A stretch of 64,000 nucleotides of DNA from Alphaproteobacteria bacterium (GCA_965267185.1 OZ253937.1:1889151-1953150); one strand, 5' to 3'. Shown: positions 29,663 to 48,143, counted from the stretch's first letter. A program made the numbers and translations. The notes: a model not told the origin generated them from the letters alone.

Positions 29663-29678
29663 AAGGCTCGCTTTGCGA

Positions 29679-31616
29679 TCACACCGAAAATTCGGCGCCA
29701 ACCTGTTCCGCCCATATGACTAAGTTGGCCCAGCGCCAAGGATGGGTCACCGAGGACGATCGGCCTGAGCGGTATTCCGACCAAAGCCGCCGTACCGCTT
29801 CTGAGTTCAAAGCCGGTATATTATCAAGCCGCCCACCCCCCAACACATCATCAAAGAAATCAGCGCTTTCCTGCATCCATTTCGATTCAGGCGTCACAAA
29901 GCCAACTTTGTCCCGGCGGTCGAGTATTGCATTGGGCACCACTCCGCGCAGCGCATTTCGCAGCACTGCTTTTGTTGTGCCGCCGCGGCCAATCAGATAG
30001 TCGTCCGGCAGCGCCGCCGCGGTTTCGACAAGCTTCGTTGTCAGAAACGGAACGCGCGATTCCAAGGACACTACCATCGAGTTGCGATCAACATGGCGCA
30101 ACAGAGCCGGCAAGCTCGTGCGGGTCAGCGTATTCGACAACAACGACCGAAATGTATTGTGGTCACCTGAAGCACTAGGATCGCTTATCGTCAGGCCACA
30201 GGCGCGAAACCAATCACCGTCTAACCATTGAGGCACTAGTTCTTCGCGAGCCACCCAGCGCGCGGAGTTACGCAAACCGCTGGGTAACAAGAAGGATCCT
30301 GCGCGCATAAGGTCGCGCGCTCGAGCACCGCGTGGCGCGTTAGCCGCTATGTGCCACAACAACCTCGCCGCCGATGCCAGACGGCCAGAACGAACCAGGT
30401 CCGCAAACCGGGCAGCCTGGAATACCGGGTAGCCACCGAACAACTCGTCGGCTCCTTGGCCATCGAGGATGACCTTGAACCCCGCCTGGGCTGCAGATCG
30501 ATAAACACGAGCTTGGGCGTAGATACTCGTACCGGCAAACGGCAATTCCTGGCAGCCAACGAGGTCGATCAGATCGTCGGCAAATTCCGCTTCACCAACA
30601 GTCACCTTGTGAGAGACGACCGATGCGGCATCACCCGCTATATCGATCCATCGTTCCTCGCTCGGCGCGGGGTCGTCCGCAATGTAACTAAACGCATGAA
30701 GCTCGCCTGCGAATTGCTCCCGTACTGCACAGACGATAGCCGAGGAGTCGATGCCGCCCGACAAGGCCACCGCAATAGGTACATCGCTACGCAACCTCAA
30801 ACGTACGCTCTCGGCAAATGTTTCGCGTAACTGCTCCGCGGCGTCATCCAGCGAGATTGACCGCACGGCAGGCTCCGGCAACTGCCAGTATCTTTGCGGC
30901 GATACGTCGGATGGACGGTTCAGATCGATTTTCAAACTGTGCGCCGGTAGAAGAGACTTCACATCGGCAAACATGGTCGCCGTACCGTCGTCGCACTGCC
31001 CAAATCGTAAATAGCGATAAAGCTCCTCCGGAGCGATACGCCGCGAAACACCAGGGAGGGTCAGTAGCGGGCGTATTTCAGACGCGAAGGCAAATCCGCT
31101 ACCCGATAGCGTAACGTAATAAAGCGGCTTAATGCCGAACGGATCGCGCGCCAAAAACAGCTCGTTGGCGACAGTGTCGAGAATCGCAAAAGCAAACATA
31201 CCGTCGAGCCGTAATAATGCCGCTTCGCCCCATCGGGCATAGGCGCGTAGTAGTACTTCGGTATCGCAGTTCGACACGAAGTGATCGCCCTCTGCTGCCA
31301 ACTCCGCCCGAAGCTCTAGAAAGTTGTAGATTTCCCCATTGTAGATGATGGCATAGCGGCCATCCGGCGTTGCCATCGGCTGCCACCCGGCCGGGCTCGG
31401 ATCCAAGATCGACAAGCGGCGGTGGACAAGCCACACATCCATCGTTTCCCCGCCCTCCGGCAAAGTCCGGCTCGGCGATAGCGGCATCTCCGGGCGCCAG
31501 GCCAGATATCCCATATCGTCGGGTCCACGATGCTCGAGGCTATCGCTCAGCGCAGCGACGACATCTGTCGTCGGGGGCGCACCATTCCCGGGAATGATTC
31601 CGGCGATACCGCACAT
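29679..31616 (-). CDS. Asparagine synthetase (glutamine-hydrolysing) family amidotransferase (AsnB/WbpS-like)
   Basis: Starts MCGIAGI (class II GATase nucleophile Cys2), has the PP-loop SGGIDSS, 645 aa. It is embedded in the polysaccharide operon. Confidence 0.85.
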   Translation of the reverse strand: MCGIAGIIPGNGAPPTTDVVAALSDSLEHRGPDDMGYLAWRPEMPLSPSRTLPEGGETMDVWLVHRRLSILDPSPAGWQPMATPDGRYAIIYNGEIYNFLELRAELAAEGDHFVSNCDTEVLLRAYARWGEAALLRLDGMFAFAILDTVANELFLARDPFGIKPLYYVTLSGSGFAFASEIRPLLTLPGVSRRIAPEELYRYLRFGQCDDGTATMFADVKSLLPAHSLKIDLNRPSDVSPQRYWQLPEPAVRSISLDDAAEQLRETFAESVRLRLRSDVPIAVALSGGIDSSAIVCAVREQFAGELHAFSYIADDPAPSEERWIDIAGDAASVVSHKVTVGEAEFADDLIDLVGCQELPFAGTSIYAQARVYRSAAQAGFKVILDGQGADELFGGYPVFQAARFADLVRSGRLASAARLLWHIAANAPRGARARDLMRAGSFLLPSGLRNSARWVAREELVPQWLDGDWFRACGLTISDPSASGDHNTFRSLLSNTLTRTSLPALLRHVDRNSMVVSLESRVPFLTTKLVETAAALPDDYLIGRGGTTKAVLRNALRGVVPNAILDRRDKVGFVTPESKWMQESADFFDDVLGGGRLDNIPALNSEAVRRLWSEYRSGRSSSVTHPWRWANLVIWAEQVGAEFSV

Positions 31617-31619
31617 GTC

Positions 31620-32663
31620 TCACCCACCGTGCCAAAGAGTGGGCCGCAGGTAAGCCGCCGCGTTTCCGATCGAACTGTAGCCGCGGAGGAAATCGTTCGT
31701 CCATTTCACGCCGAGACGCCTGAGCGATCGCCAGTCGCGACCGGACGTGGACGCCAAACTGGCCCAACTAGCCGGACTGCCTTGTGGCGGTACTTCGTAT
31801 CCGTAATGCTCCGCGAGATCGCGTAGCCTAACGATGGGCAAATCAAAACGGGCTGCGTACGCTGGGTTGACCGACAGTCCGGCCATAAATGCCGCCGCCG
31901 CTCGATCTTCGTCAGAGACCGCAGCCTCGTTTGCGTCGCCCATAGTACCGTACGCGCTGTAACGCCAACTATCGAGGCGTGGACGTTCTGCACGATAGGT
32001 GTTTTCGCTGTACAGGCTGGCGATATCGAGATGTGCAGCGCTATGCCCCAATCGCTCCAACAACCGCTGAATTTCGGCTTGGGTATCATCGACGAGGTCT
32101 TCATAGCGGACGGTTAGAAAACGCGGATGTTCACGTAGCGCCCACGCGGCACTTACGTCGATTAACCACGTAGACGCAGCCAGGTAAAACCCAAACCCGC
32201 GGCGGCGCAACGAGCGATAGACGTGTAGCGGGTCCCGCACGATGTGAACAAAGACCGATTGCGGGAAGGTCTCAAGAAATGCCGCCGCGCTGTGGATATT
32301 CTCCGGCGTTTTCTCAAAGAACAACGTCGCCGCCTTACCGCGATGCTCTGCGTAATGGTGAAAAAGTTTGCCGGAGAAATCGGCGAAGCTTGCGCTTTCC
32401 TGGCGCAGCTTGGCGACCGTTTGTCGATCGAGACCGTATTCCGCGAATTCCCAGTCACCGAACCGGTCTCCAAACATGGCGTAGCACGCTGGCGACGATG
32501 ACCGGCCAAAATCGCGTCGATAGTTCGCACGAAACCGACGGTAATGATCCAGCGGCGAAAATAAGTGAAGCTCCGGCCCACATACGGCGAACGGCAAACT
32601 ATCCAGCAAATCAGCTAGATAGGTGCTCCCCGAACTCGGCGCGTTACCGATCGCGACAATCAT
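31620..32663 (-). CDS. Sulfotransferase-family protein (PAPS-dependent)
   Basis: An N-terminal P-loop-like 5'-PSB motif (VAIGNAPSSGSTYLADLL) and a 3'-PB-like motif (FVHIVRDPLHVYRSL; RDP...S). 347 aa, soluble. No specific substrate can be inferred. Confidence 0.55.
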   Translation of the reverse strand: MIVAIGNAPSSGSTYLADLLDSLPFAVCGPELHLFSPLDHYRRFRANYRRDFGRSSSPACYAMFGDRFGDWEFAEYGLDRQTVAKLRQESASFADFSGKLFHHYAEHRGKAATLFFEKTPENIHSAAAFLETFPQSVFVHIVRDPLHVYRSLRRRGFGFYLAASTWLIDVSAAWALREHPRFLTVRYEDLVDDTQAEIQRLLERLGHSAAHLDIASLYSENTYRAERPRLDSWRYSAYGTMGDANEAAVSDEDRAAAAFMAGLSVNPAYAARFDLPIVRLRDLAEHYGYEVPPQGSPASWASLASTSGRDWRSLRRLGVKWTNDFLRGYSSIGNAAAYLRPTLWHGG

Positions 32664-33982
32664 GCAACCGGCTCCGGTTTGCTGAGCCGCAACAGCTCAC
32701 CCCACCCGATACTTTCGCGCCGGCACAGATCGATCAACATTGCCAGCTGACGAAGCGTCGCAAGTGCGGAGAATAGGCCAACGCCGATGAGCACATTCTC
32801 GAGTAGTGCACCGGCCGCCAAACCGACGAGCGCAGCCGAAAAGTAAGCGGCCTGATAAACCAGAAAGGCGCGCTGCCGGCCGCGAACGAAAAACAATTGT
32901 GAAATCGGGGCCACTAAAAACATCGTCAAATATAACGGTGCGAGAAGGCTGGCCATCAAACCGGCAAGCCGCCACTGATCACCGAAGACGGGCGCAAACA
33001 GCCAAGGAGAGAGAACGAGAACACCGGCATACAAGGGAACCCCGGCACGGATCAACCCACGTAAACTGTCGACCGTGACAGACTTCGCGTTGCCCGACGC
33101 CATGAATTCCTGATTGGCGCGGGGATAATAGATTTGAGCGAGCGCCGCCGTCGCCATAGCAGCCGGCCAGCCAGTGGCGCGCACGGCGAGCCCGAACTGT
33201 CCCGTCAAGGCTTCGCTGTAGAATACGCCGATGACGATCACCGGCAATTCGAGAGCAGCCACGTTAAGCAGCGCCGCCGGTACGTCATAATACGGGAACT
33301 TTTTGTGCCGCGTCGCCATTGCCGACGCTCGGCCGACAGTGCGGCCCGCCTGCAACCGGAACTGGCGAACCAAGGCGCCGCCTTCGACAATCAAAAACGT
33401 CAAGCCAGCAACCGCGATACCGGCAAGATGCCCAACCGCGAGCGCCACACCACCGGCTAAAGCACTGAACGACGCCGCTATTTGCACAGCTGCCGCAACT
33501 GTCTGCTGCCCGATGCGCGCCGTCGCGATGACACCCGTATGGTGGCGCCGGCTCGCCCAATAGTTCAATGCCTGATACATCCCGCGCGCCGCGACTGCAG
33601 CCGGCAGAACCCACAACGCCGCGCCCAAGTTCTCGACCCCCAACCACAGCGCGATTTGCTCCCCTGCAACAAGAACGAGCACGACAAGTATCACCGCTAT
33701 GGCAAAACTCGCGGCCCAAGCCACCTGGACCAAGCTGGCCGCTCCCCGCAGCGTTCGTGGCAAGACGATTGCGAGTTCGTAGCGCAAGCACGCACAGGTG
33801 CCGATCAGGTTGGCCAGCGCCAGATAAACGACGAACACGCCAACATCGGCAGGGGTGTAGAGCCGCGTTAAAACCGGCCACGCCGCCAAAGCCACGATCT
33901 GTCCGACAAGCGTCGCGCCGCCCAACCGCATCACACCGGAAAACAGCGGCTGGCTTGTCACGGTATCTGACTTTATTGACAC
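32660..33982 (-). CDS. Polysaccharide biosynthesis protein / Wzx-type oligosaccharide flippase (MOP superfamily)
   Basis: 440 aa with ~12 predicted TM helices. It is the first gene of a co-directional polysaccharide operon, overlapping the next gene by 4 nt. Confidence 0.7.
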   Translation of the reverse strand: MSIKSDTVTSQPLFSGVMRLGGATLVGQIVALAAWPVLTRLYTPADVGVFVVYLALANLIGTCACLRYELAIVLPRTLRGAASLVQVAWAASFAIAVILVVLVLVAGEQIALWLGVENLGAALWVLPAAVAARGMYQALNYWASRRHHTGVIATARIGQQTVAAAVQIAASFSALAGGVALAVGHLAGIAVAGLTFLIVEGGALVRQFRLQAGRTVGRASAMATRHKKFPYYDVPAALLNVAALELPVIVIGVFYSEALTGQFGLAVRATGWPAAMATAALAQIYYPRANQEFMASGNAKSVTVDSLRGLIRAGVPLYAGVLVLSPWLFAPVFGDQWRLAGLMASLLAPLYLTMFLVAPISQLFFVRGRQRAFLVYQAAYFSAALVGLAAGALLENVLIGVGLFSALATLRQLAMLIDLCRRESIGWGELLRLSKPEPVA

Positions 33983-35774: not shown

Positions 35775-36530
35775 CTATGAGGAGACCGCCGGACACCGCG
35801 CAGCACCGATGATCGGGCCGGGGCGTTCGGTCTGTATCAGGACAACGCAGCTGAAACCTTCTTCGAACGTATAGTCAGCCACTTCGACAGTCGCGGCCTG
35901 CCCTGTCCAATCGCCGACCCGGCGCACTTCGCGAACGATGTTGTGGTTGACGAGATTCTTGCCCTTGTTTTCGCCGCCAGTGGGCTGAACGGCCTGCTGG
36001 TTTTTGTAGCGTAGCAGCCAAATCCCGGCATTACCGGCGACCGCACCGCCAACTGTGATAGCTAGGCCGCCCTGGGGAGGCGATGTCACCGAGACCGCGA
36101 CCCGTTCGCCCGCATTTTTTTGCGCTTCTTTGATCCTGCGGTTGACCGTCCGTTTCCGACTACCGACCGCCTCGGTCTTGCCGTCGAACACCATCTGCGG
36201 CGTAAAGGAGTATCCGCGCCCCTCGATGTGTTTGTTATAGCGGCGCTGCCGGTCGGTTGCCTCGGGGCTTGAGAAAGTATCCTTCCAGCGTCCCGCCGAG
36301 CCGTAAACCAACTGGTCCCAATAATCGACATGATGTTCCAATGCGATGATATCGTCGCGCTTGGCGAGCTCGCCGAGATAAGCTTCTGCCGGCGGGCACG
36401 AATAGCAGCTTTGCGAGGTGAATAATTCGACCACCGTGGGCTGCTCACCTGCATCCGCAGCGGTAGCTCCGTGTGGCAGAATACCGATAGCGGTAAGGCT
36501 CAATACAGCGGCTTGCAGATGTCGTTTCAT
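35775..36530 (-). CDS. DUF1223-domain secreted thioredoxin-fold protein
   Basis: Signal peptide plus VVELFTSQSCYSCPPAE (CxxC), characteristic of DUF1223. Confidence 0.6.
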   Translation of the reverse strand: MKRHLQAAVLSLTAIGILPHGATAADAGEQPTVVELFTSQSCYSCPPAEAYLGELAKRDDIIALEHHVDYWDQLVYGSAGRWKDTFSSPEATDRQRRYNKHIEGRGYSFTPQMVFDGKTEAVGSRKRTVNRRIKEAQKNAGERVAVSVTSPPQGGLAITVGGAVAGNAGIWLLRYKNQQAVQPTGGENKGKNLVNHNIVREVRRVGDWTGQAATVEVADYTFEEGFSCVVLIQTERPGPIIGAARCPAVSS

Positions 36531-36769
36531 GGGATTAGCACCTCGGTTTAACGCGAATACACGAACACATTAACAAGGCAATCGGTCTTTTATTCCCTCT
36601 CTCACACAAGATTGAAGAATTTGGGGGTAACGACTTCACGTTTGCGTGAAGCGCCTAAGTTTTTACTAGCATTTCAGATGCTTAGAGGGTGTCGTGGCGC
36701 ATCAGCGATATGCGTTCGAGCACCGCTATGGGGAAGTTTACGAGCTAAACAGGGAGCACGATCCACATC

Positions 36770-37252
36770 ATGCAATTCTCTTCAAATACCGTGAAACGCA
36801 CTCTCGGCGTCGCCGCTGTTATTGCCGTTGGCGTTGCCTTCGGCACCATTGGCACCAGCCCGTCCGATGCGCAGATGAGTGAACTCACCAAGCAACGCGT
36901 CGCCGCTATGAAATCGATGGGCGGCAACATGAAGAAGCTCGGCGGCGCCGTTGCCAGCGGCGACAATGCGGCAGCAGCAGCAGCAGCTACAGAGATCAAC
37001 AATGTCGCGAAAGCAATCGCATCGGTATTTCCGGAAGGCAGTGGCACCGGGGAAACCAGGGCGAAACCGGAGATCTGGCAAGACTTTGCAGACTTCACCG
37101 CAAAGGCAAATGCCCTGGATGCAGCATCAGCGAAAGTGATCGCCGATGCCAACGCCGGTAATTTGGGCAGCGATCCTAAAGCGGTTGTAGGGTCAATCGG
37201 CCAGAATTGCGGTGCTTGCCACAAGGTTTACCGCGTGCCGAAGCAGAACTAG
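36770..37252 (+). CDS. Class II cytochrome c (cytochrome c'/c-556 family)
   Basis: Signal peptide, a four-helix-bundle-length protein (160 aa), and a single C-terminal haem site CGACHKVYR. Met-rich N-terminal helix. Confidence 0.75.
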   Translation: MQFSSNTVKRTLGVAAVIAVGVAFGTIGTSPSDAQMSELTKQRVAAMKSMGGNMKKLGGAVASGDNAAAAAAATEINNVAKAIASVFPEGSGTGETRAKPEIWQDFADFTAKANALDAASAKVIADANAGNLGSDPKAVVGSIGQNCGACHKVYRVPKQN

Positions 37253-37276
37253 TACACGCACGTCTTGGGAGGACAA

Positions 37277-37310
37277 CGGCCGCCAGGAATTTTCCCGGCG
37301 GCCGTTTTTC
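37277..37310 (+). terminator. Rho-independent terminator between the two cytochrome genes
   Basis: cggccgcc-aggaattttccc-ggcggccg followed by TTTTT, immediately after the cytochrome c' stop. Confidence 0.5.
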
Positions 37311-37323
37311 CTTATAAAGCGTT

Positions 37324-38190
37324 ATGCGTTTGATTTTGTTAGCAACCCTGCTCCTACTATCGCCAGCCGGGCAAGATGCAGCTCTCGCGGCAAGCGCGGG
37401 CAATGCCGAACGCGGGGCTTACATTCTTCGTGTCGCCGGTTGCGGCTCCTGTCATACGGCTCCAAAAGGGGGCCAATTTCTCGCCGGCGGGCGCGAGCTC
37501 AAATCGCCGTTTGGGTCTTTTTTTTCACCAAACATCACAAGCGACGCGGAAACCGGCATCGGCAAGTGGAGCGACGAGGATTTCGTACGGGCCCTGCGCG
37601 ATGGCAAGTCGCCCGACGGAAAACCCTATTACCCTTCCTTTCCCTACACGTCGTACACGCGTATGACCCGCGAAGACATGGTCGATCTAAAGGCCTATCT
37701 CGATACGGTCGAACCGGTGAGCAAGCAGGTGCCCGACCACGATCTCCGCTTCCCCTTCAGCGTGCGGACGGGCATGCATGTATGGCGCACGCTGTTCTTC
37801 GATAAGGATCCGCTGTCGCCCGATCCGGCGCAAAGCGAAGCCTGGAACCGAGGCGCCTATATCGTGAACGGCCCCGGACATTGCGGCGAGTGCCATACCC
37901 CACGGAACATACTCGGCGGTCTTAAACAAAGTCGCGCCTTATCCGGAAATCCCGAGGGTCCCGACAACGAGCCCGTCCCGAACATTACCGGCCATCCCCG
38001 ATTGGGCATTAAGGATTGGAGCATCGACGACGTGGTGTCGTTTCTGCAGATCGGCATCAAGCCGGATGGCGATTTTGCCGGTGGAGCAATGACCGATGTG
38101 ATCGACGACGCGACGGGCAAACTCACCGAAGCCGATCTAACTGCGATCGCCACCTACCTCAAGTCGCTGCCGGCTATCCCTGCACCGTAG
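37324..38190 (+). CDS. Dihaem c-type cytochrome
   Basis: Signal peptide and two CxxCH motifs (CGSCH, CGECH) in a 288-aa protein. There are no extra Cys, so it is not TsdA-like. Confidence 0.75.
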
Positions 38191-39326: not shown

Positions 39327-39548
39327 TCATCCCGCTTTGCTGATGACGAATGTCAACACGCCATCGTCCTCGGTCGCGCTCTCGAGCGTGTCGCCCGTCG
39401 CGTCACAAAAATTGTGGAAGTCCTTCATGGCGCCGGGATCGGTGGCAATCACCGTCAGCCGGTCTCCTGCCGATAGACCCTTGAGAGCCTTTTTGGCTTT
39501 TAACACCGGCAAAGGACATTTGAGTCCCGACGTGTCGAGTACGTCCAT
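39327..39548 (-). CDS. tusA: TusA-family sulfurtransferase
   Basis: LDTSGLKCPLPVLKAKKALKGLSAGDRLTVIATDPGAMKDFHNFCD... carries the CPxP active-site motif. The start is chosen at MDVLD (73 aa); the longer ORF-track start is possible. Confidence 0.75.
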   Translation of the reverse strand: MDVLDTSGLKCPLPVLKAKKALKGLSAGDRLTVIATDPGAMKDFHNFCDATGDTLESATEDDGVLTFVISKAG

Positions 39549-39632
39549 ACGTCTGCTCGTTCGAGTCACTCTAGGTTGACTCATAGTGCGGTTATCGGGC
39601 GCCGCCGCAACCCCCATCTGGCGTTATCTCGA

Positions 39633-39662
39633 TTGACCGTTTTTCTAATATGCGAATATACT
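39633..39662 (+). promoter_or_regulatory. Putative promoter (TTGACC-18-TATACT) of the ArsR-family regulator gene, with an embedded TTTC-N8-GAAT operator-like dyad (39642-39657)
   Basis: Read from the sequence. The -10 ends ~7 nt before the ATG at 39669, suggesting a leaderless mRNA, and no SD is visible. The dyad resembles the ATTC-N8-GAAT box reported for SqrR. Confidence 0.35.
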
Positions 39663-39668
39663 AATTTT

Positions 39669-40022
39669 ATGGATATCCACGGGCTCAAAGAAAAATCAGC
39701 GCAAGCGAGCCGCCTGTTAAAGTCGTTGGCGAACGACAGACGGTTGCTGATTCTTTGTCATTTGAGCGAGAGTGAAAAATCCGTCGGCGAGCTGGAGCGG
39801 TTGGTCGACCTCAGTCAGTCAGCGCTATCGCAACATCTTGCACGGCTACGCCGCGACGATCTCGTGCAAACGCGCCGCGAAGCCCAAACGATCTACTATT
39901 CAATTGCCAGTCTTGAGGCTGGTGAGGTTCTAAAAACCCTGTACAAGCTTTACTGCGCCGACGATGCGCCGACCACCCGGCCCACCGCCGCCGCTGGACG
40001 GCGCAGCGCGTCGGGTGTTTGA
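39669..40022 (+). CDS. ArsR/SmtB-family transcriptional repressor, SqrR/BigR-like (persulfide-sensing type)
   Basis: Winged-HTH core (SVGELERLVDLSQSALSQHLARLRRDDLV). The only two Cys residues are at positions 30 and 96, a 66-residue spacing identical to the Cys41/Cys107 (SqrR) and Cys42/Cys108 (BigR) redox pair. It is divergent from tusA and upstream of rhodanese/TauE. Confidence 0.65.
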   Translation: MDIHGLKEKSAQASRLLKSLANDRRLLILCHLSESEKSVGELERLVDLSQSALSQHLARLRRDDLVQTRREAQTIYYSIASLEAGEVLKTLYKLYCADDAPTTRPTAAAGRRSASGV

Positions 40023-40090
40023 GCCGATAAATCACCACAGGGCCTCCAAGACAACGCCGATATCAACACAAACCCAAAGGCCCTACGAAA

Positions 40091-40426
40091 ATGACACAGC
40101 AAGTCACGTTCCTGGAACCGGCAGAGGTACAGGCCAAACTCACCGACGGTACGGCCTATGTCGTTGACGTACGCGAGCCGCATGAATATGCCGAAGCACA
40201 TATCGCCGGCGCCGTTCTCATGCCGCTATCACAGTTTGATCCAAGCAAAATCTCACCTCCGGAAGGTAAGAACCTGATCTTCCATTGCCGCAGCGCTCAA
40301 CGCTGCGGCGTGGCCTCCGAACAGCTAATCGCTGCAGGCTACAAAGGCGCAATCTATCGCATGGCCGGCGGCCTCCTCGCCTGGACGGCGGCGGGGTTAC
40401 CGGTGGAGAGCGGCGCAAACGACTAA
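40091..40426 (+). CDS. Single-domain rhodanese (thiosulfate/persulfide sulfurtransferase)
   Basis: 111 aa with an active-site Cys loop (IFHCRSAQRCG). Confidence 0.8.
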   Translation: MTQQVTFLEPAEVQAKLTDGTAYVVDVREPHEYAEAHIAGAVLMPLSQFDPSKISPPEGKNLIFHCRSAQRCGVASEQLIAAGYKGAIYRMAGGLLAWTAAGLPVESGAND

Positions 40427-40466
40427 GGCCAACAATCACGACGTCCGGGCGATTTCACGTTAGCCA

Positions 40467-41393
40467 ATGAATATCTACCTGCCCATTGCTGAAATGTCGG
40501 TCGATGTTTTCCTGATCCTTGGATTGGGGGGCGGCATCGGATTTCTGTCCGGGTTATTCGGCGTCGGTGGCGGGTTCTTGATGACACCACTACTAATTTT
40601 CATCGGCATACCACCCGCGGTGGCCGTAGCCAGCGAGGCAAACCAAATCGTCGCTGCGTCGGTCTCTGGTGCGCTCGCACATATGCGGCGCGGTAACGTC
40701 GATATCAAAATGGGCCTGATCCTGACCGCTGGAGGCTTTGCGGGATCCGGCGTTGGGGTGTTGATTTTCACGCTGCTGCGCCAACTCGGGCAGGTCGAAC
40801 TGCTGATCGCGCTAAGTTACGTGGTATTTCTCGGTGCCATCGGTTTGTTGATGCTGATCGAAAGCGGCCGGACCATGCTGCGGCACCGGGCTGGCACGGC
40901 AACCAGAGGCAAGCTGCACCAGCATACATGGCTGCACGGACTACCCCTGAAAATGCGGTTTCGCCGCTCGCGCCTCTACATCAGCGCGCTCCTGCCGATC
41001 GGTATCGGTTTCTTCGTCGGTATTCTGGCGGCCATCATGGGTGTCGGGGGCGGATTCATCATGGTGCCGGCGATGATTTACCTGCTCGGAATGCCGACCG
41101 CCGTCGTTGTCGGCACTTCTTTATTCCAGATCATTTTTGTCACCGCCAACGTAACCTTCTTGCAAGCGACCACTAATCAGACCGTCGATATCGTGCTGGC
41201 GCTATTGCTGCTCACCGGCGCCGTGATTGGCGCCCAGTTGGGAACGAAGGCGGGCGGCTTGTTGCGCGGCGAACAACTGCGCGGTCTGCTGGCGCTTATC
41301 GTTCTCGGCGTCTGCGCCAAGATTGCCTACGATCTCGTATCGACCCCGTTTGATATCTTCTCGATCAGCGAAATCTCAGGATTTGGCGGATGA
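40467..41393 (+). CDS. TauE/SafE-family (DUF81) sulfite/anion exporter
   Basis: 308 aa with duplicated 4-TM halves, each carrying a GGGxxxxP-like motif (GVGGGFLMTPLL and GVGGGFIMVPAM). Confidence 0.8.
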   Translation: MNIYLPIAEMSVDVFLILGLGGGIGFLSGLFGVGGGFLMTPLLIFIGIPPAVAVASEANQIVAASVSGALAHMRRGNVDIKMGLILTAGGFAGSGVGVLIFTLLRQLGQVELLIALSYVVFLGAIGLLMLIESGRTMLRHRAGTATRGKLHQHTWLHGLPLKMRFRRSRLYISALLPIGIGFFVGILAAIMGVGGGFIMVPAMIYLLGMPTAVVVGTSLFQIIFVTANVTFLQATTNQTVDIVLALLLLTGAVIGAQLGTKAGGLLRGEQLRGLLALIVLGVCAKIAYDLVSTPFDIFSISEISGFGG

Positions 41394-42157
41394 GAAACCT
41401 TCATCACACAATATTGGCTATGCTCCTGTTTGTGGGAGTCGCGGCGGCACCGGCACAAGGTCAAACACCAACCCTCGCGTCGTCGCCTTTGGTAGCAGAC
41501 CTCAGCGAAGATCTCATCGCAATCACAACCGGATTTACCGGCACCGAAGTCTTGCTGTTCGGAGCGACCGTGGGTTCCGGCGAAATCATTGTTGTCGTCA
41601 AGGCGCCGGAAAGCCAGGTCGTTGTGCGCCGAAAAGAACGGGTCGCCGGTGTGTGGATCAACGCCGATAGCCTAACTTTCGACAAAGTGCCCGGATTTTA
41701 TCATGTCGCCGCTTCGCAGCCTCTGACCGATCTATTGCCGGAAGCGACCTTGAAAAGTGAACAAATCGGTGCCGAGAATTTGTCGTTGGAGTCTGTATCG
41801 CCAACGTCGGCCGCAGAGTTCGCTCTATTTACCGAAGCATTGATCCGTAACAAGAAGAGAACAGATCTCTTCAATGAACAGCTTGGCGAGATCAAGTTCC
41901 TCGGTGACCGGCTATTCCGTACTCAGGTACAACTCCCGTCAAACGTACCGACGGGCGCTTACACAGCAACGGTATATCTGGTGGACAAGGGAGAGATCAT
42001 CGACCGCACCGACACGCTGCTGCAAGTTCGAAAATCGGGCTTCGAAGCCAAAGTGTTCGAGTTCGCCAATCAAAATGCGGCGATCTACGGTATCATTGCC
42101 ATTCTTATTGCATTGGCGGCGGGATGGTTTGCCGGCATTGTCTTCCGAAACGTCTGA
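41390..42157 (+). CDS. TIGR02186-like alphaproteobacterial membrane-anchored protein (conserved partner of DUF81)
   Basis: Signal peptide plus a C-terminal TM (IYGIIAILIALAAGWFAGIVF). It overlaps tauE by 4 nt, indicating translational coupling. The family name is recalled from memory. Confidence 0.5.
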   Translation: MRNLHHTILAMLLFVGVAAAPAQGQTPTLASSPLVADLSEDLIAITTGFTGTEVLLFGATVGSGEIIVVVKAPESQVVVRRKERVAGVWINADSLTFDKVPGFYHVAASQPLTDLLPEATLKSEQIGAENLSLESVSPTSAAEFALFTEALIRNKKRTDLFNEQLGEIKFLGDRLFRTQVQLPSNVPTGAYTATVYLVDKGEIIDRTDTLLQVRKSGFEAKVFEFANQNAAIYGIIAILIALAAGWFAGIVFRNV

Positions 42158-42164
42158 CGCCGTT

Positions 42165-42695
42165 ATGACCGATCAAACGACAACCGAACCAGCAAATGCC
42201 GCGCCGGACGACCGGCGCCCCGAAGTGAGCCAACCCAATGTTTTTCTTGTGGTGGCGGACAACACGCGGGAGATGCAAGTGGCGCTGCGTTTCGCAAGTC
42301 TTCGCGCGAAACGCACTGGCGGCCGCGTCGGTCTACTGCGTGTTGTACGCAAAGCCGACTTTCAGCATTGGGCGGCGATCGGCAACCTGATGCGCGAAGA
42401 AGCGCGCGATGAGGCCGAACAGTTGCTGCAAGAACATGCGGCAACGGTCACCGAGTTAACCGGCGGCGAGATGCCGATCCTCTACATCAAAGAGGGCGAC
42501 ACCAAGTCGGCTCTTCTCGAGCTGATCGATGAAGACGCGCAGATTCGTATTCTGGTTCTCGCCGCCGCCACGGGGACACGCGGGCCGGGACCCCTTATTA
42601 CGTTCCTGATGAAAAAGATAATCGGCAAGCTGCGCATCCCGGTCACGATTGTGCCCGGAGGACTCACCAACAATCAGATCGATACGCTGACTTAA
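42165..42695 (+). CDS. Universal stress protein (UspA-domain)
   Basis: VFLVVADNTREMQVALRFA...ILVLAAATGTRG is a UspA-like Rossmann fold. The start is chosen at MTDQTT; the longer ORF-track form overlaps the upstream gene. Confidence 0.6.
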   Translation: MTDQTTTEPANAAPDDRRPEVSQPNVFLVVADNTREMQVALRFASLRAKRTGGRVGLLRVVRKADFQHWAAIGNLMREEARDEAEQLLQEHAATVTELTGGEMPILYIKEGDTKSALLELIDEDAQIRILVLAAATGTRGPGPLITFLMKKIIGKLRIPVTIVPGGLTNNQIDTLT

Positions 42696-42707
42696 GCCCT
42701 AACCCGA

Positions 42708-45653
42708 TTGCGTGCCTTCATGCCCGACCAAACGAGAAGCGTAAACTCGCCCGAGATTATCGATACCTCGCCGCCGGTTGCCGACGAGATCAAAACCACC
42801 ACGTGTTACATGTGCGCCTGCCGGTGCGGCATCAACGTCCACCTCCGCGACGGGGCGATCCGCTACATCGAGGGCAACCGCGACCATCCGGTCAACAAAG
42901 GCGTTTTGTGCGCCAAAGGATCGGCCGGCATCATGCAGCACTATTCGCCGGCCCGGCTGTCCAAGCCGTTGAAGCGGGTGGGTCCGCGCGGCTCCAACGA
43001 GTTCGTTGAGATCGAGTGGGAGGAAGCCTTGGCGACCGCCACGGCATGGCTCACCGAAGTTCGCCGCTCAGACCCACGCAAGCTGGCTTTTTTCACCGGA
43101 CGCGATCAAAGCCAAGGGTTGACCGGGTTCTGGGCGAGCCAGTTCGGCACGCCTAACTACGCGGCCCATGGCGGCTTTTGCTCCGTTAATATGGCCGCCG
43201 CCGGGCTCTACACTATCGGCGGATCGTTCTGGGAGTTCGGCGAGCCGGACTGGGAACGAACGCGTTACTTCTTGATGTTCGGCGTTGCCGAGGATCACGA
43301 TTCCAACCCCATCAAAGCCGGGCTCGGCAAACTAAAAGGAAAAGGCGACGCCAAATTCGTCTCCGTCAACCCGGTGCGCACCGGCTACTCCGCCGTCGCC
43401 GACGAATGGATTGGTGTACGGCCCGGAACGGATGGCTTATTCGTTCTGGCGCTGGTTCACGAGCTTCTGCGGGCCGGACAAGTCGATCTCGCGTATCTGG
43501 TGCGCTACACCAACGCGCCATGGCTGATCTATGAAGCACCGGGCGAGGCTCATGATGGGCTGTTCGTGCGCGATGCCGACGGCAATCCCCTGGCGGTCGA
43601 CAAAAACACCGGAAAACTCGTCAGCGCGTTGGCCGCCGACATTGCCCCTGCGCTGCAAGGTAAATTCGATCTAGCTGAACTCGACGGTGTCGATAGCGAT
43701 ATCAGCGGGCTGGCTGTGCCGGCTTTCCAGCAGTTACTCGACCGCTATAGCGATCCGCAATACGCACCGGAGGCGGTTGCCGCGCAAACTGGCGTCGACG
43801 CCGATACGATCCGCCGCATTGCGGCAGAGCTCGCCCACGCCGCCTTTCAGCAGACGATCGAGATCGACACGCCGTGGACCGACTGGGCTGGCCGCCGTCA
43901 TGACAAAATGATCGGCCGGCCGGTGGCGATGCACGCAATGCGCGGCATCTCCGCCCATTCGAATGGCTTCCAGACCTGCCGGGCGATCCACATGTTGCAG
44001 ATGCTGCTTGGCAGCATCGATTGCCCCGGCGGTTTTCGCTACAAGCCGCCCTTTCCAAGGCCGGCGCCACCCGGACCGAAGCCAGCGGGCCGCGGTGAGC
44101 AGATCGCCGCCGAAACGCCGATGCCCGGACCGCCGCTCGGTTTCGTCACCGGTCCCGAAGATCTTTTGGTCGAAGCCGACGGACGGCCTTCGCGTATCGA
44201 CAAGGCCTTTTCGTGGGAGTACCCGCTGGCCGCCCACGGCATGATGCATCTGGTGATCCGCAACGCGTGGGCGCGCGATCCCTACCCCATCGATGTGCTG
44301 TTCATGTTCATGGCCAACATGAGCTGGAACTCGGCAATGAACACCGCCGAGACCATCGAAATGTTGACCGACATCGATCCCGACACCGGCGAATACCGCA
44401 TCCCCAAGATTATCTACTCGGATGCATTTTCCTCCGAGATGGTGCCTTACGCCGACCTCATCCTGCCCGACACCACCTATCTGGAGCGGTGGGACTGCAT
44501 CAGCTTGCTCGACCGGCCGATCTGCGATGCCGACGGACCGGCGGACTCGATCCGCCAACCGGTTGTTGCTCCTGACCGCGACGTGCGGCCCTTCCAGGAT
44601 GTGCTGATCGATCTCGGCGCACGCCTGGGCCTCCCCGCGTTTGTCGATGAGGCCGGCAGCGCCCGTTATCCCGGCGGCTATCCCGACTACATCGCCAACC
44701 ATGAACGCACGCCAGGTATCGGTCCGCTGGCCGGATGGCGCGGCGCCGACGGAACATCGCACGGCCGCGGCGAAGCAAATCCTGACCAGCTATCCCGCTA
44801 TATTGAGAACGGTTGCTTCTGGCGCGACGAGTTGGCGCCCGATCAGCGCTACTTCAAGTTCGCCAACCAAAGCTACTTGCAGTATTCGGCCGACATGGGC
44901 TGGATTCCCGATGCCAATCAAATAATCCTGCAGCTCTACAGCGAACCGCTGCAGAAGTTTCGCCTGGCCGCGCAGGGACACGGGCCCCACCAGCCGCCCG
45001 GCTCGCACCGCGAGCGGCTCGAGACCTTCTTCGATCCGTTGCCGATCTGGTACGCACCCTTCGAGGAGGAATTCAGCACGGACGAATCCTATCCGATACA
45101 CGCGCTCACCCAGCGGCCGATGGCGATGTACCATTCGTGGGGGTCGCAAAACGCTTGGCTGCGGCAAATCCATGGCTGGAACCGGCTCTTTGTTCATGCT
45201 GACACAGCCCGCGACGCGGGACTCGCCGATGACGACTGGGCGTGGATCGAGAGCCCCTATGGTCGCGTCAAGGCGCAGATCAAATGCATGACGGGCTGCA
45301 ACCCAGCGACCGTGTGGACGTGGAACGCGATCGGTAAGCGCCGCGGTAGTTGGAATCTCGACGACAACGCACCGGAATCACGTCGCGGCTTCCTCCTCAA
45401 TCATCTGATCACCGATCTGCTGCCACCGAAAAACGGCCATCGCTACGCCAATGCCGATCCGATCACCGGACAGGCGGCCTGGTTCGACTTGAAGGTGCGC
45501 TTGAGCAAAGCGGAACCCGGCGAAGCGGAAGAAAGCGAACCTGTATTCCCGGTCCTGGAAGAATTACCCAACACCAAGAAACGCCCCGCAATCTTACGCT
45601 ACGGTGAACGCTTCCTGCCTACCGGCGACTGGCGGCGGAGGCGGGCGTCATGA
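42708..45653 (+). CDS. soeA: Molybdopterin (bis-MGD) oxidoreductase catalytic subunit without a Tat signal; SoeA-like sulfite dehydrogenase candidate
   Basis: 981 aa. N-terminal 4Fe-4S motif CYMCACRCG...C in a DMSO-reductase-family scaffold. No twin-arginine leader. Followed by the Fe-S and membrane-anchor subunits. Confidence 0.55.
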   Translation: MRAFMPDQTRSVNSPEIIDTSPPVADEIKTTTCYMCACRCGINVHLRDGAIRYIEGNRDHPVNKGVLCAKGSAGIMQHYSPARLSKPLKRVGPRGSNEFVEIEWEEALATATAWLTEVRRSDPRKLAFFTGRDQSQGLTGFWASQFGTPNYAAHGGFCSVNMAAAGLYTIGGSFWEFGEPDWERTRYFLMFGVAEDHDSNPIKAGLGKLKGKGDAKFVSVNPVRTGYSAVADEWIGVRPGTDGLFVLALVHELLRAGQVDLAYLVRYTNAPWLIYEAPGEAHDGLFVRDADGNPLAVDKNTGKLVSALAADIAPALQGKFDLAELDGVDSDISGLAVPAFQQLLDRYSDPQYAPEAVAAQTGVDADTIRRIAAELAHAAFQQTIEIDTPWTDWAGRRHDKMIGRPVAMHAMRGISAHSNGFQTCRAIHMLQMLLGSIDCPGGFRYKPPFPRPAPPGPKPAGRGEQIAAETPMPGPPLGFVTGPEDLLVEADGRPSRIDKAFSWEYPLAAHGMMHLVIRNAWARDPYPIDVLFMFMANMSWNSAMNTAETIEMLTDIDPDTGEYRIPKIIYSDAFSSEMVPYADLILPDTTYLERWDCISLLDRPICDADGPADSIRQPVVAPDRDVRPFQDVLIDLGARLGLPAFVDEAGSARYPGGYPDYIANHERTPGIGPLAGWRGADGTSHGRGEANPDQLSRYIENGCFWRDELAPDQRYFKFANQSYLQYSADMGWIPDANQIILQLYSEPLQKFRLAAQGHGPHQPPGSHRERLETFFDPLPIWYAPFEEEFSTDESYPIHALTQRPMAMYHSWGSQNAWLRQIHGWNRLFVHADTARDAGLADDDWAWIESPYGRVKAQIKCMTGCNPATVWTWNAIGKRRGSWNLDDNAPESRRGFLLNHLITDLLPPKNGHRYANADPITGQAAWFDLKVRLSKAEPGEAEESEPVFPVLEELPNTKKRPAILRYGERFLPTGDWRRRRAS

Positions 45654-46408
45654 CGAGCCTGCCCAAAACGCCACCGGAGAAAAAGCTCGGTCTGGTGATC
45701 GACCTGGATACCTGCGTCGGTTGCCACGCTTGCGCGGTGAATTGCAAGGAATGGAACACGGGCGGCCATTCAGCCCCCCTCACCGATCTCGAACCTTATG
45801 GCGAAGATCCTCACGGTGTCTGGTTCAATCGGATCCACACGTTCGAAGCCGGCGAAGGAGCGCAGGGGCGCACCGTGCATTTTCCCAAGAGCTGCCTGCA
45901 CTGCGACGAGCCGGCCTGCGTGACCGTATGCCCCACCGGCGCGTCCTATAAGCGCGAAGAAGACGGCATCGTTTTGGTCAATGCCGACACCTGCATCGGC
46001 TGCAAACTCTGTTCATGGGCATGCCCCTACGGCGCACGCGAGTATGACTACACCGATGGGGTGATGAAGAAATGCACCCTGTGCATCGACCGCATCTACA
46101 ACGAGAACCTCGAAGAAGAGGACCGGGTACCCGCCTGCGTATCCACCTGCCCCGCCTCGGCCCGTCATTTTGGCGACCTGGGCGATCCGAACTCCGAGGT
46201 GTCGCAGCTGGTGCGCGAGCGCGGTGGCTATGACCTGATGCCCGAGATGGAGATGCAGCCGGTCAATAAATATCTGCCGCCGCGGCCAACAAAAACAACA
46301 GCCGGCGACACCGGCGCGCCCGCTGCCTTGCCCGGTGATGCGTCTGAAACCGTCGATACAACGGGCCACGGTTTCCTGGCCTGGGTCGACCGGGCGCTGT
46401 CGCGTTAG
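45650..46408 (+). CDS. soeB: 4x[4Fe-4S] ferredoxin-type subunit (DmsB/PsrB/SoeB-like)
   Basis: Four Cys clusters (CVGCHACAVNC; CLHCDEPACVTVCP; CIGCKLCSWACP; CTLCIDR...C). Overlaps the A subunit by 4 nt. Confidence 0.6.
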   Translation: MTSLPKTPPEKKLGLVIDLDTCVGCHACAVNCKEWNTGGHSAPLTDLEPYGEDPHGVWFNRIHTFEAGEGAQGRTVHFPKSCLHCDEPACVTVCPTGASYKREEDGIVLVNADTCIGCKLCSWACPYGAREYDYTDGVMKKCTLCIDRIYNENLEEEDRVPACVSTCPASARHFGDLGDPNSEVSQLVRERGGYDLMPEMEMQPVNKYLPPRPTKTTAGDTGAPAALPGDASETVDTTGHGFLAWVDRALSR

Positions 46409-46425
46409 CATCGGGTTCGTTCGCC

Positions 46426-47373
46426 GTGCATCCCGCCTACTCGGTCATTTTTTTCACAACAGCGTCCGGCGCAGGTTATGGGCTGTTGGTCTGGCTCGCT
46501 GTTGGGACCATTTTTTTCGACCTGCCGTCCGATCGCTGGTTCGGATTTACCTCCTTCGCCGTCGCGCTAGTCCTGATTACTTTTGGGCTACTCTCATCGA
46601 CCTTCCACCTGGGTCATCCGGAACGGGCCTGGCGGGGACTGACCCAGTGGCGGTCGTCGTGGCTATCGCGCGAAGGCGTCGCAGCGGTCCTCACTTACAT
46701 TCCCGCTGGGCTTGCCGCGATCGGCTGGGTGTTCCTGACCCGCAACGATGGCGTGTGGGCCTGGCTGATGGCAGCCGCCGGGATACTGGCAATCGTCACC
46801 GTGTATTGCACTGCGATGATCTATCAAAGTCTGCAGGCCATACCGCGCTGGAACACGCCTTGGGTGACGCTGGTCTATCTCGGATTCGCCCTGGCCAGTG
46901 GAGCGTTGCTGTTCCATCTCGGGGTCCGCGCCTTCGGTCTCGATCTCGTTGGCAGCGGTTGGGCCGCGGCGGCTCTGACGGCCGCTGCCTGGATCGTAAA
47001 ACTGATCTACTGGAACAGAATCGACCGCGCTCCCGCTAGGTCGACAGCGGAGACGGCCACCGGATTGGGACATCTCGGTAGGGTTCGTCTATTCGAGGCG
47101 CCGCATACCGGCGACAATTACCTGATGCGCGAAATGGGCTACAAGGTCGCCCGCAAGCACGCAACACGACTGCGCATCATCGCGCTCATCCTGGGTGGCG
47201 CGATACCAGTGATTCTGGCCGTGGCGGCCACTCAACTATCTGACCCGGCCGCGGTGCTGGTGGGATTGCTGGCTGTTTTGTCGGCAGGTGCGGGATTGCT
47301 CGTCGAACGCTGGCTGTTTTTTGCCGAGGCGGTTCACGCGGTGTCGCTCTATTACGGCATGGACTCCGCTTAG
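46426..47373 (+). CDS. soeC: DmsC/NrfD-type membrane anchor subunit (SoeC-like)
   Basis: 315 aa with ~8 TM segments. HPERAWRGLTQWRSSWLSREG is a typical DmsC-family loop. Confidence 0.6.
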   Translation: MHPAYSVIFFTTASGAGYGLLVWLAVGTIFFDLPSDRWFGFTSFAVALVLITFGLLSSTFHLGHPERAWRGLTQWRSSWLSREGVAAVLTYIPAGLAAIGWVFLTRNDGVWAWLMAAAGILAIVTVYCTAMIYQSLQAIPRWNTPWVTLVYLGFALASGALLFHLGVRAFGLDLVGSGWAAAALTAAAWIVKLIYWNRIDRAPARSTAETATGLGHLGRVRLFEAPHTGDNYLMREMGYKVARKHATRLRIIALILGGAIPVILAVAATQLSDPAAVLVGLLAVLSAGAGLLVERWLFFAEAVHAVSLYYGMDSA

Positions 47374-48143
47374 ACCGCCAACGACGGCATCTGGATAGGG
47401 CCGTCGATCAGTTGATTGACGAACTGGTGGACGTAGGCATTGTCGGTCGCTTCGAGTTCGTCAATTGAGCCCTGCCAAACGATGCGGCCTTCATGAAGCA
47501 TCGCCACCCGCTCGGCGATCTTGCGCACGACAGCCATATCGCTCACGACCGAGATAATCGTCGCGCCGAGCTCGCTTTCGCGTTCGATAATGAGTTCGCT
47601 GATGATGTTGCTCATAATCGGGTCGAGACCGGCGGTCGGTTCATCGAGGAAAATGATCTCCGGGTCGGTCGCGATCGCCCGGGCTAATCCCGCGCGCTTT
47701 TGCATACCTCCCGACAGTTCGGCGGGATATAGGTCTGCCGTATCCGCGGTGAGGCCGGCCGAGCCGAGCTTTTCGATGGCCCGCGCCCGCGCCGTCGAGT
47801 TATCTACTGCCGGGTCCTGCAAGAGCCGGAAAGCCACATTCTCCCAGACGGTCAAACTGTCAAACAGGCCTTGCCGCTGAAACAGCACACCGAAGCGGCT
47901 CATCCAGGCCATTCTTTCGTTCTCCGACAGGCCGACGGAGTCTTGCCCATCGATTTCGACCCGGCCGGAGTCCGGTGGCACCAGTCCGAGAATAGTTTTC
48001 AGCAGTAGCGATTTTCCGCTGCCCGAGCCGCCAATCAGGACCAGCGACTCTCCGGCGGCAACATCGAGCGAAATGCTATCGAGCGCGCGGTAGCCATCGA
48101 ACGTCTTGCAGACATCGATCAGGCGAATCTTCGGCGTTGTCAT
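47370..48143 (-). CDS. ABC transporter ATP-binding protein, MlaF/Ttg2A-like
   Basis: Walker A GGSGSGKS, signature LSGGMQKR, Walker B IIFLDEPT; 257 aa. No permease or MCE partner is adjacent. Its stop overlaps the convergent soeC stop. Confidence 0.8.
   Translation of the reverse strand: MTTPKIRLIDVCKTFDGYRALDSISLDVAAGESLVLIGGSGSGKSLLLKTILGLVPPDSGRVEIDGQDSVGLSENERMAWMSRFGVLFQRQGLFDSLTVWENVAFRLLQDPAVDNSTARARAIEKLGSAGLTADTADLYPAELSGGMQKRAGLARAIATDPEIIFLDEPTAGLDPIMSNIISELIIERESELGATIISVVSDMAVVRKIAERVAMLHEGRIVWQGSIDELEATDNAYVHQFVNQLIDGPIQMPSLAV

Follow-up and report, generated by a model that had tools for sequence, protein, structure and literature searches.

A SoeABC-type molybdoenzyme locus with a persulfide-type repressor, rhodanese and TauE–TIGR02186–Usp genes in an alphaproteobacterium

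Introduction

Do nine neighboring genes of an alphaproteobacterium make up one route from the sensing of sulfane sulfur to the oxidation of sulfite, or are they independent units that happen to abut? The question is raised by positions 39327–47373 of a 64,000-nucleotide stretch of Alphaproteobacteria bacterium DNA (GCA_965267185.1, OZ253937.1:1889151-1953150); this whole stretch is referred to as the window. Open reading frame (ORF) calls and family profile searches identify nine genes at the locus. One, encoding a TusA sulfur carrier, lies on the minus strand. The eight others, on the plus strand, encode an ArsR-family repressor, a single-domain rhodanese, a TauE-family transporter, a TIGR02186-like protein, a universal stress protein (Usp) and the three subunits of a molybdoenzyme, designated here SoeA, SoeB and SoeC. 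An earlier note on this DNA, made from the sequence alone, had read the genes as a single module for persulfide and sulfite handling.

The locus is most probably a SoeABC operon, likely to be co-transcribed with the upstream genes for a persulfide-sensing repressor, rhodanese and TauE–TIGR02186–Usp, and sharing a control region with the divergent tusA. Family placement, architecture and orientation were established computationally; the regulation, co-transcription, enzyme substrate and transport described below are inferred. The locus is a lineage-specific arrangement of known parts and not a new kind of system.

An enzyme of the SoeABC type, predicted to face the cytoplasm

SoeABC has been defined genetically in Allochromatium vinosum (Alvin_2491-2489) and Ruegeria pomeroyi (SPO3559-3557), and biochemically in Aquifex aeolicus. 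The window enzyme shares its three-subunit architecture: a catalytic subunit with molybdenum bis(pyranopterin guanine dinucleotide) (Mo-bisPGD) and the FS0 cluster, a four-cluster ferredoxin, and a heme-less NrfD-like membrane anchor, encoded in the order soeA-soeB-soeC with an overlapping soeA/soeB junction. Masses calculated for SoeA, SoeB and SoeC are 108.5, 27.4 and 34.0 kDa; those of the A. vinosum subunits are reportedly about 109, 27 and 36 kDa. The order is also very stable. A scan of a genome collection, for which the best 80 species were listed, provided 54 soeABC loci, each representing one species and flanked by 5 kb or more on either side; soeB and soeC follow 3′ of soeA in 53 of these.

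The residues expected to hold the cofactors are present. SoeA carries the FS0 motif as C29-x2-C32-x3-C36-x27-C64. Its Cys154, invariant in 12 aligned homologs, aligns with the Cys of the "LCTAP" sequence of Thermus PsrA, which we take to be the Mo ligand of that enzyme. SoeB has 16 Cys residues in four groups, sufficient for four [4Fe-4S] clusters, and is without a signal peptide. The hydropathy profile of SoeC contains eight hydrophobic segments, read as eight predicted transmembrane helices, and the protein is heme-less, having no CxxCH motif.

Signal and topology predictions place the enzyme on the inner side of the membrane. The N-terminus of SoeA, MPDQTRSVNSPEIIDTSPPVADEIKTTTC, has no RR motif and provides 28 residues before the first FS0 Cys, leaving it without a twin-arginine translocation (Tat) signal on motif inspection; SoeB has none either. 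A Tat-like motif was found in none of 237 homologs having the FS0 motif, in which a median of 22 residues precedes the first Cys. In a positive-inside count for SoeC, Lys and Arg residues averaged 13.9 on the side bearing the termini and 1.1 on the opposite side, with the same sign in all 76 aligned sequences, and both termini are therefore predicted to be cytoplasmic (N-in/C-in). Both PsrC termini lie on the P-side; for SoeC the inverted orientation is expected, because SoeAB face the N-side (PMC8076601). The positive-inside prediction agrees with this inversion in 76/76 sequences.

These data bear directly on whether the enzyme could be a conventional periplasmic, Tat-exported reductase of polysulfide, thiosulfate, tetrathionate or dimethyl sulfoxide. 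Among solved structures Thermus PsrA comes nearest and among NCBIfam models PhsA matches best, and the enzyme resembles PsrABC of Thermus thermophilus (PDB entries 2VPZ and 2VPW) in its A/B/C architecture, Cys Mo ligand and eight-helix heme-less anchor. These matches are, however, weak and partial. The PsrA match amounts to 129 bits over the first ~250 residues only, and SoeA scores 213.5 bits against a cut-off of 694 for PhsA, 118 against 778 for DmsA/YnfE and 82.6 against 1750 for TtrA; overall, the TtrA, PhsA, DmsA and Fdh models reach 5–30% of their cut-offs. No NCBIfam model claims the window SoeA, and NCBIfam holds no model for SoeA. PsrA is, moreover, Tat-exported and faces the periplasm, with the PsrC termini on the P-side, whereas SoeA and its homologs have no Tat motif, the anchor topology is inverted, and the window SoeA is longer than PsrA by ~200 residues. 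The low model scores, missing Tat motif and inverted anchor effectively refute a periplasmic Psr/Phs/Ttr enzyme, to which we attach only a very slight residual probability.

The molybdoenzyme is of the SoeABC type and is predicted to face the cytoplasm, as judged from its computed architecture and orientation, and its sulfite-oxidizing activity is predicted from homology. The earlier note had proposed this assignment and the lack of a twin-arginine signal, and had suggested setting the catalytic subunit against the PsrA, TtrA and DmsA clades. The first two points hold: the anchor topology, the gene context and 65% identity to a SoeA named as such by IMG favor SoeABC, and neither the RR motif here nor a Tat-like motif in the 237 homologs was found. 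Comparison with models and structures of those clades yields the sub-threshold and partial matches given above.

Relation to characterized SoeABC and probable substrate

The SoeA family is very tight: members from Alphaproteobacteria, Gammaproteobacteria and a small number of further phyla are 62–86% identical. Among representatives clustered at 50% identity, the top 150 matches are mostly fragments of the SoeA family (at least 261 bits), with no outgroup among the matches listed. Several members bear the IMG name "sulfite dehydrogenase (quinone) subunit SoeA", and the window SoeA is 65% identical over 934 residues to one of them, P0188. The P0188 locus (L087, 4103–11545) encodes a 593-residue thiamine pyrophosphate enzyme resembling Xsc, then Pta, SoeA, SoeB and SoeC, making P0188 a Roseobacter-type SoeA of xsc-pta-soeABC context. 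In R. pomeroyi, xsc is presumably SPO3561. The order in L087 matches that tabulated in a re-annotation of the R. pomeroyi genome, pta (SPO3560)-soeA (SPO3559)-soeB-soeC, with soeABC as SPO3559-3557 (PMC4334477). Upstream of soeA, xsc-pta was looked for in three of the Rhodobacterales loci from the genome scan and not found, the plus-strand ORFs of L067 being spurious.

In other lineages, different genes adjoin soeABC. One locus has cysteine dioxygenase and a pyridoxal phosphate enzyme of Cys/Met metabolism (L005, 7183–13915); the cysteine dioxygenase pathway leads to sulfite. Another has a protein with a metallo-β-lactamase fold (L038, 8923–9786), possibly a persulfide dioxygenase. Because soeABC has such varied neighbors in other lineages (xsc-pta, cysteine dioxygenase and the metallo-β-lactamase-fold protein), sulfite is favored as the common substrate.

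An enzyme of this architecture might nevertheless act on a different substrate, or in a different direction, for example on thiosulfate, tetrathionate or polysulfide at the cytoplasmic face. Characterized SoeABC enzymes are few (those of A. vinosum, R. pomeroyi and A. aeolicus), and the window protein is linked to the characterized SoeA proteins by proxy and not by measured identity. Some sources, too, label members of the family "tetrathionate reductase" or "formate dehydrogenase". Such a shift in function is nonetheless improbable for a family that is conserved at 62–86% identity between Alpha- and Gammaproteobacteria, includes members in an R. pomeroyi-type xsc-pta context, falls so far below the cut-offs of the TtrA, PhsA, DmsA and Fdh models, and in other lineages has neighbors that point to a source of sulfite. 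Sulfite oxidation is retained here as the predicted activity.

Public sources do not name the SoeA family consistently: its members appear as "molybdopterin oxidoreductase family protein", "formate dehydrogenase", "tetrathionate reductase subunit A precursor" or "anaerobic selenocysteine-containing dehydrogenase", and SoeA is used in only some of the IMG entries.

Repressor and candidate operator

The best solved relatives of the ArsR-family protein are HlyU (E = 1.8e-27) and R. capsulatus SqrR (6o8l, E = 1.3e-23), followed by YgaV and BigR. It shares the winged-helix ArsR fold of SqrR (Rhodobacter capsulatus), BigR (Xylella/Agrobacterium), HlyU (Vibrio), YgaV (E. coli) and sHdrR/SoxR (Hyphomicrobium denitrificans). 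Like the SqrR, BigR and HlyU repressors, it has two Cys residues at equivalent positions, and metal-site motifs are not evident in it. These residues, Cys30 and Cys96, align with the cysteines of HlyU and SqrR and are 66 residues apart. We take the sensing cysteines to be C41/C107 in SqrR, with the same spacing of 66, and C42/C108 in BigR. Both Cys residues are kept in all nine ArsR homologs that adjoin soeABC, across six gene arrangements. The best NCBIfam match is the BigR equivalog NF040642, whose cut-off of 155 bits is not reached (87.4 bits). The protein is a member of the persulfide-sensing SqrR/HlyU/YgaV/BigR-like subgroup and not a BigR orthologue, and sensing by its conserved Cys pair is a prediction from these alignments. 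It had been described earlier as a repressor of the SqrR/BigR type, a description that the Cys alignment to HlyU and SqrR sustains.

The BigR operon also has a TauE-like gene. More generally, SqrR-type regulators beside rhodanese and TauE genes have already been described (PMC12423496), and the window repressor, which adjoins genes of both families, follows this pattern of the persulfide-responsive class. Unlike in regulons of the SqrR/BigR class, the genes downstream include soeABC and not sqr, pdo (blh), sox or shdr.

A promoter scan found a single good sigma-70-like site in the region, TTGACC-18-TATACT at 39633–39662, with a score of 10/12. Overlapping its –10 hexamer and directly 5′ of the arsR ATG is an element of 21–22 nucleotides, TCTAATATGCGAATATACTAAT (39644–39665), which is present once in the window and is kept in five related loci whose flanks have diverged. 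It resembles a direct CTAAT...CTAAT repeat; a search of the tusA/arsR spacer for an inverted-repeat operator found none. We regard TCTAATATGCGAATATACTAAT as a candidate operator, to which the repressor would bind. In this layout, the arsR transcript may lack a leader or carry only a very short one.

TusA and rhodanese

The TusA protein matches PF01206 with 76 bits (cut-off 28.6, E = 1.8e-21) and has the active-site Cys motif GLKCPLP (CPxP), and scores 48.9 against the E. coli TusA equivalog, for which the cut-off of 78 is not reached. The rhodanese matches PF00581 with 60 bits and has the active-site loop CRSAQR. A tusA gene beside soeABC has already been remarked upon for some sulfur oxidizers (PMC11507549), and tusA is directly divergent from soeA in four of the 80 loci listed. 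The window locus departs from known SoeABC loci in having no dsr, sHdr, sox or xsc-pta genes nearby, and in that its operon is preceded by an SqrR-type repressor, rhodanese and TauE–TIGR02186–Usp.

The TauE–TIGR02186–Usp cassette

TauE is a multi-pass membrane protein matching PF01925 over residues 18–285 (159.5 bits, cut-off 32.6, E = 1.4e-46). The protein encoded next matches PF09608 with 265 bits (cut-off 24.5) and scores 199 bits against the NCBIfam model TIGR02186, below the cut-off of 255; its close homologs are named "TIGR02186 family" by IMG. An AlphaFold model of it (mean predicted local distance difference test score, pLDDT, 86.7) comprises a signal peptide, two β-sandwich domains and a C-terminal transmembrane helix. 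A fold search with this model returned only generic immunoglobulin-like β-sandwich matches and no functional lead, and no mention of TIGR02186 was found in the literature searched.

The TIGR02186 protein was compared with metagenome contigs, giving 80 loci (L088–L167). Of the 55 loci with room for it, 54 have TauE directly upstream of TIGR02186, and Usp is directly downstream in 46 of 49. By comparison, soeA was within 4 kb downstream in just 4 of 37 loci. Several long contigs carry the cassette 3′ of murJ-trpS, its usual setting in Alphaproteobacteria, with unrelated genes after it; it stands beside soeABC in the lineage of the window and a few others, for example Nisaea and Mesorhizobium. 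On account of its near-constant TauE and Usp partners, rare association with soeA and murJ-trpS setting, TauE–TIGR02186–Usp is considered an autonomous, widely conserved cassette.

The earlier note had called the transporter a DUF81/TauE sulfite exporter. Membership of PF01925 stands, but "sulfite exporter" is the name of a family and not a demonstrated function; applied here, it draws on the Pfam name and a recurrent minority linkage with soeABC, and export of the sulfate product would be equally plausible. The protein resembles the TauE/SafE (DUF81) exporters of sulfite and sulfoacetate, such as Cupriavidus necator TauE, in its PF01925 domain, length of ~300 residues and position beside sulfite-handling genes. 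It differs from C. necator TauE in that its subfamily is almost always paired with TIGR02186 and Usp, usually in a non-sulfur context.

It is tempting to speculate that the cassette is an unrecognized three-part anion exporter, in which a DUF81 channel would act with a helix-anchored periplasmic β-sandwich partner and a cytoplasmic Usp regulator on sulfite, or on sulfate from cytoplasmic sulfite oxidation. This is a tentative suggestion, which we think has a minor chance of being correct. If it were, the placement in the window, immediately ahead of soeABC and in an operon under a persulfide-type sensor, and the recurrence near soeABC (Nisaea, Mesorhizobium and others) would be the first functional clue to the substrate. 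The cassette is the main remaining interest of the locus, which offers a hypothesis for its function.

In the related locus L004 (4294–7855), whose SoeA is 76% identical to that of the window, tauE is tandemly duplicated and usp is separated from soeA by an inserted OsmC-family gene.

One operon or three abutting units

The complete gene order was found only in close relatives: L001/L002 (SoeA 86% identical), L004 (76%) and L089/L090/L092 (73–74%). Its recurrence in L001/L002, L004, L089/L090 and L092 indicates that the arrangement has not arisen by chance. More widely, at least one of TusA, ArsR, rhodanese, TauE, TIGR02186 and Usp is encoded near soeABC in 17 of the 54 loci; TauE and TIGR02186 account for nine, rhodanese for six, TusA for five, Usp for four and ArsR for two.

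Such figures leave room for an alternative, in which three independent units abut in this lineage without forming an integrated persulfide-to-sulfate module: a stress unit of tusA, repressor and rhodanese, a housekeeping cassette with a substrate other than sulfite, and a self-regulated soeABC. It would suit a cassette that is self-standing, usually has murJ and trpS as neighbors and is seldom followed by soeA, as well as the 37 of 54 soeABC loci that have none of the accessory genes nearby and the restriction of the full order to close relatives. Set against it are several features of the window. All eight genes downstream of the promoter-like site lie on one strand with gaps of –4 to 68 bp, this site is the only one of its kind in the region, and no convincing plus-strand terminator was found in the region 3′ of the arsR promoter. 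The cassette, moreover, occurs within the fetched flank (up to 10 kb) of soeABC in 9 of 54 loci, compared with about 0.25% expected at random, and these nine come from different families (Nisaea, Mesorhizobium, Hyphomicrobiaceae and various metagenome-assembled genomes) and have different arrangements. ArsR homologs keeping both Cys residues likewise recur beside soeABC. We therefore regard three unconnected units as possible but rather unlikely, and a SoeABC operon read together with its upstream genes as the probable state of the locus.

Several points nonetheless weigh against the operon. Only close relatives share the full gene order, and the cassette is found mostly away from soeABC in a housekeeping context, such that its role at the window locus may not be specific to sulfite. 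The equivalog cut-offs for BigR, TusA and TIGR02186 are not reached. A sulfite-producing enzyme was not found among the larger ORFs of the window. Orthology to Alvin_2491, SPO3559 and Aquifex SoeA is suggested by a proxy, namely IMG/KO name and gene context, in place of direct alignment. Support as a whole comes from sequence and context, with expression, operator binding and enzyme activity as predictions.

The proposal that the whole locus is one dedicated module goes too far: it is a lineage-specific juxtaposition, in which soeA follows the cassette (4 of 37 loci elsewhere) and whose full order is limited to close relatives. It had also been said that these genes are not usually drawn as one locus. 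This is mildly true of the whole, but only mildly, because the tusA–soeABC and SqrR–rhodanese–TauE neighborhoods are both published (PMC11507549, PMC12423496).

Proposed route from sulfane sulfur to sulfate

By analogy with SqrR, BigR and HlyU, sulfane sulfur in the form of persulfide or polysulfide would bridge Cys30 and Cys96 of the repressor, causing its release from the tusA/arsR element. As the plus-strand genes are only –4 to 68 bp apart behind one promoter-like site, de-repression would be expected to cover arsR-rhd-tauE-TIGR02186-usp-soeABC, and probably tusA. Rhodanese and TusA might pass sulfane sulfur to a sulfite-forming enzyme encoded elsewhere. SoeA, judging by its homologs, would oxidize cytoplasmic sulfite to sulfate at Mo-bisPGD, and electrons would flow from FS0 through the four SoeB clusters to a quinone in SoeC. 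Finally, the TauE cassette could export an anion, which might be excess sulfite or the sulfate formed.

If this widespread and generically labeled family is recognized as SoeABC, the source organism gains, as do many heterotrophic Alphaproteobacteria, a way of oxidizing sulfite to sulfate in the cytoplasm and feeding the quinone pool. With an SqrR-type sensor ahead of soeABC, the trigger for sulfite oxidation may be sulfane-sulfur stress and not sulfite as such.

As to where the sulfite comes from, none of sqr, pdo (HxHxDH motif), sox, dsr and xsc was found among the larger ORFs of the window, in agreement with the earlier remark that sqr and pdo are absent; the source must consequently be encoded elsewhere in the genome.

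Gene calls and junctions

Features of the locus are listed in Table 1. The earlier note had counted eight genes; all of its ORFs lie where it placed them and belong to the families it named, but the genes number nine and four starts are shorter. The starts in question, those of tusA, arsR, usp and soeA, are shorter than the longest ORFs and were chosen by sequence context and the gene calls of relatives. A 73-residue tusA is also called in the relatives L001 and L004, and an entry identical to the 977-residue SoeA product is on record in a protein collection. ATGA overlaps join tauE to the TIGR02186 gene (41390–41393), a junction that the earlier note had read as translationally coupled, and soeA to soeB (45650–45653). 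The usp start is 7 nucleotides past the TIGR02186 stop.

Table 1. Genes and control element of the SoeABC-type locus, in window coordinates
Feature	Position	Strand	Description
tusA	39327..39548	-	73 aa; divergent from arsR; PF01206
promoter-like site + candidate operator	39633..39665	+	TTGACC-18-TATACT; directly 5′ of arsR ATG
arsR (ArsR/SmtB-family repressor)	39669..40022	+	117 aa; HTH_5
single-domain rhodanese	40091..40426	+	111 aa; PF00581
tauE (DUF81/TauE-family membrane transporter)	40467..41393	+	308 aa; PF01925
TIGR02186/Alph_Pro_TM	41390..42157	+	255 aa; PF09608
usp (UspA-domain universal stress protein)	42165..42695	+	176 aa; PF00582
soeA (Mo-bisPGD catalytic subunit)	42720..45653	+	977 aa, 108.5 kDa; Molybdop_Fe4S4 + Molybdopterin + Molydop_binding
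soeB (ferredoxin-like subunit)	45650..46408	+	252 aa, 27.4 kDa; Fer4_11, 4Fe-4S dicluster
soeC (NrfD/PsrC/DmsC-type anchor)	46426..47373	+	315 aa, 34.0 kDa; PF04976

Surrounding genes

Upstream of the locus, 35775–38190 encodes a DUF1223 protein, a cytochrome c′ and a c-type cytochrome with two CxxCH motifs, and a genuine mtnA (TIGR00512, 413 bits) lies on the minus strand. The earlier note had tied mtnA and the two c-type cytochromes to the module. Neither link is supported. Because mtnA is absent from the closest relative, L001, it is rejected as a part of the unit. The cytochrome genes, upstream on the plus strand, are set off from the unit by mtnA and tusA on the minus strand. Cytochrome homologs are kept upstream in L001, L004, L090 and L092, but none turned up beside soeABC in genomes less closely related, and a connection of the cytochromes with SoeABC, a quinone-reducing enzyme, is improbable.

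Downstream, an orphan ABC-transporter ATPase without an adjacent permease is encoded on the minus strand (47370–48143), convergent with soeC, its stop overlapping the soeC stop region. It is kept at the same position in L001, L089 and L092, and weaker homologs lie upstream of TauE in L003 (Nisaea), L098 and L141. The flanking genes also include one for methylmalonate-semialdehyde dehydrogenase. Farther upstream, the minus strand at 25755–33982 carries a surface-polysaccharide cluster with a Wzy_C O-antigen ligase-like protein, an 820-residue double GT4 glycosyltransferase, an asparagine synthase, a Sulfotransfer_3 sulfotransferase and a Polysacc_synt_3 flippase, which hints at a sulfated polysaccharide.

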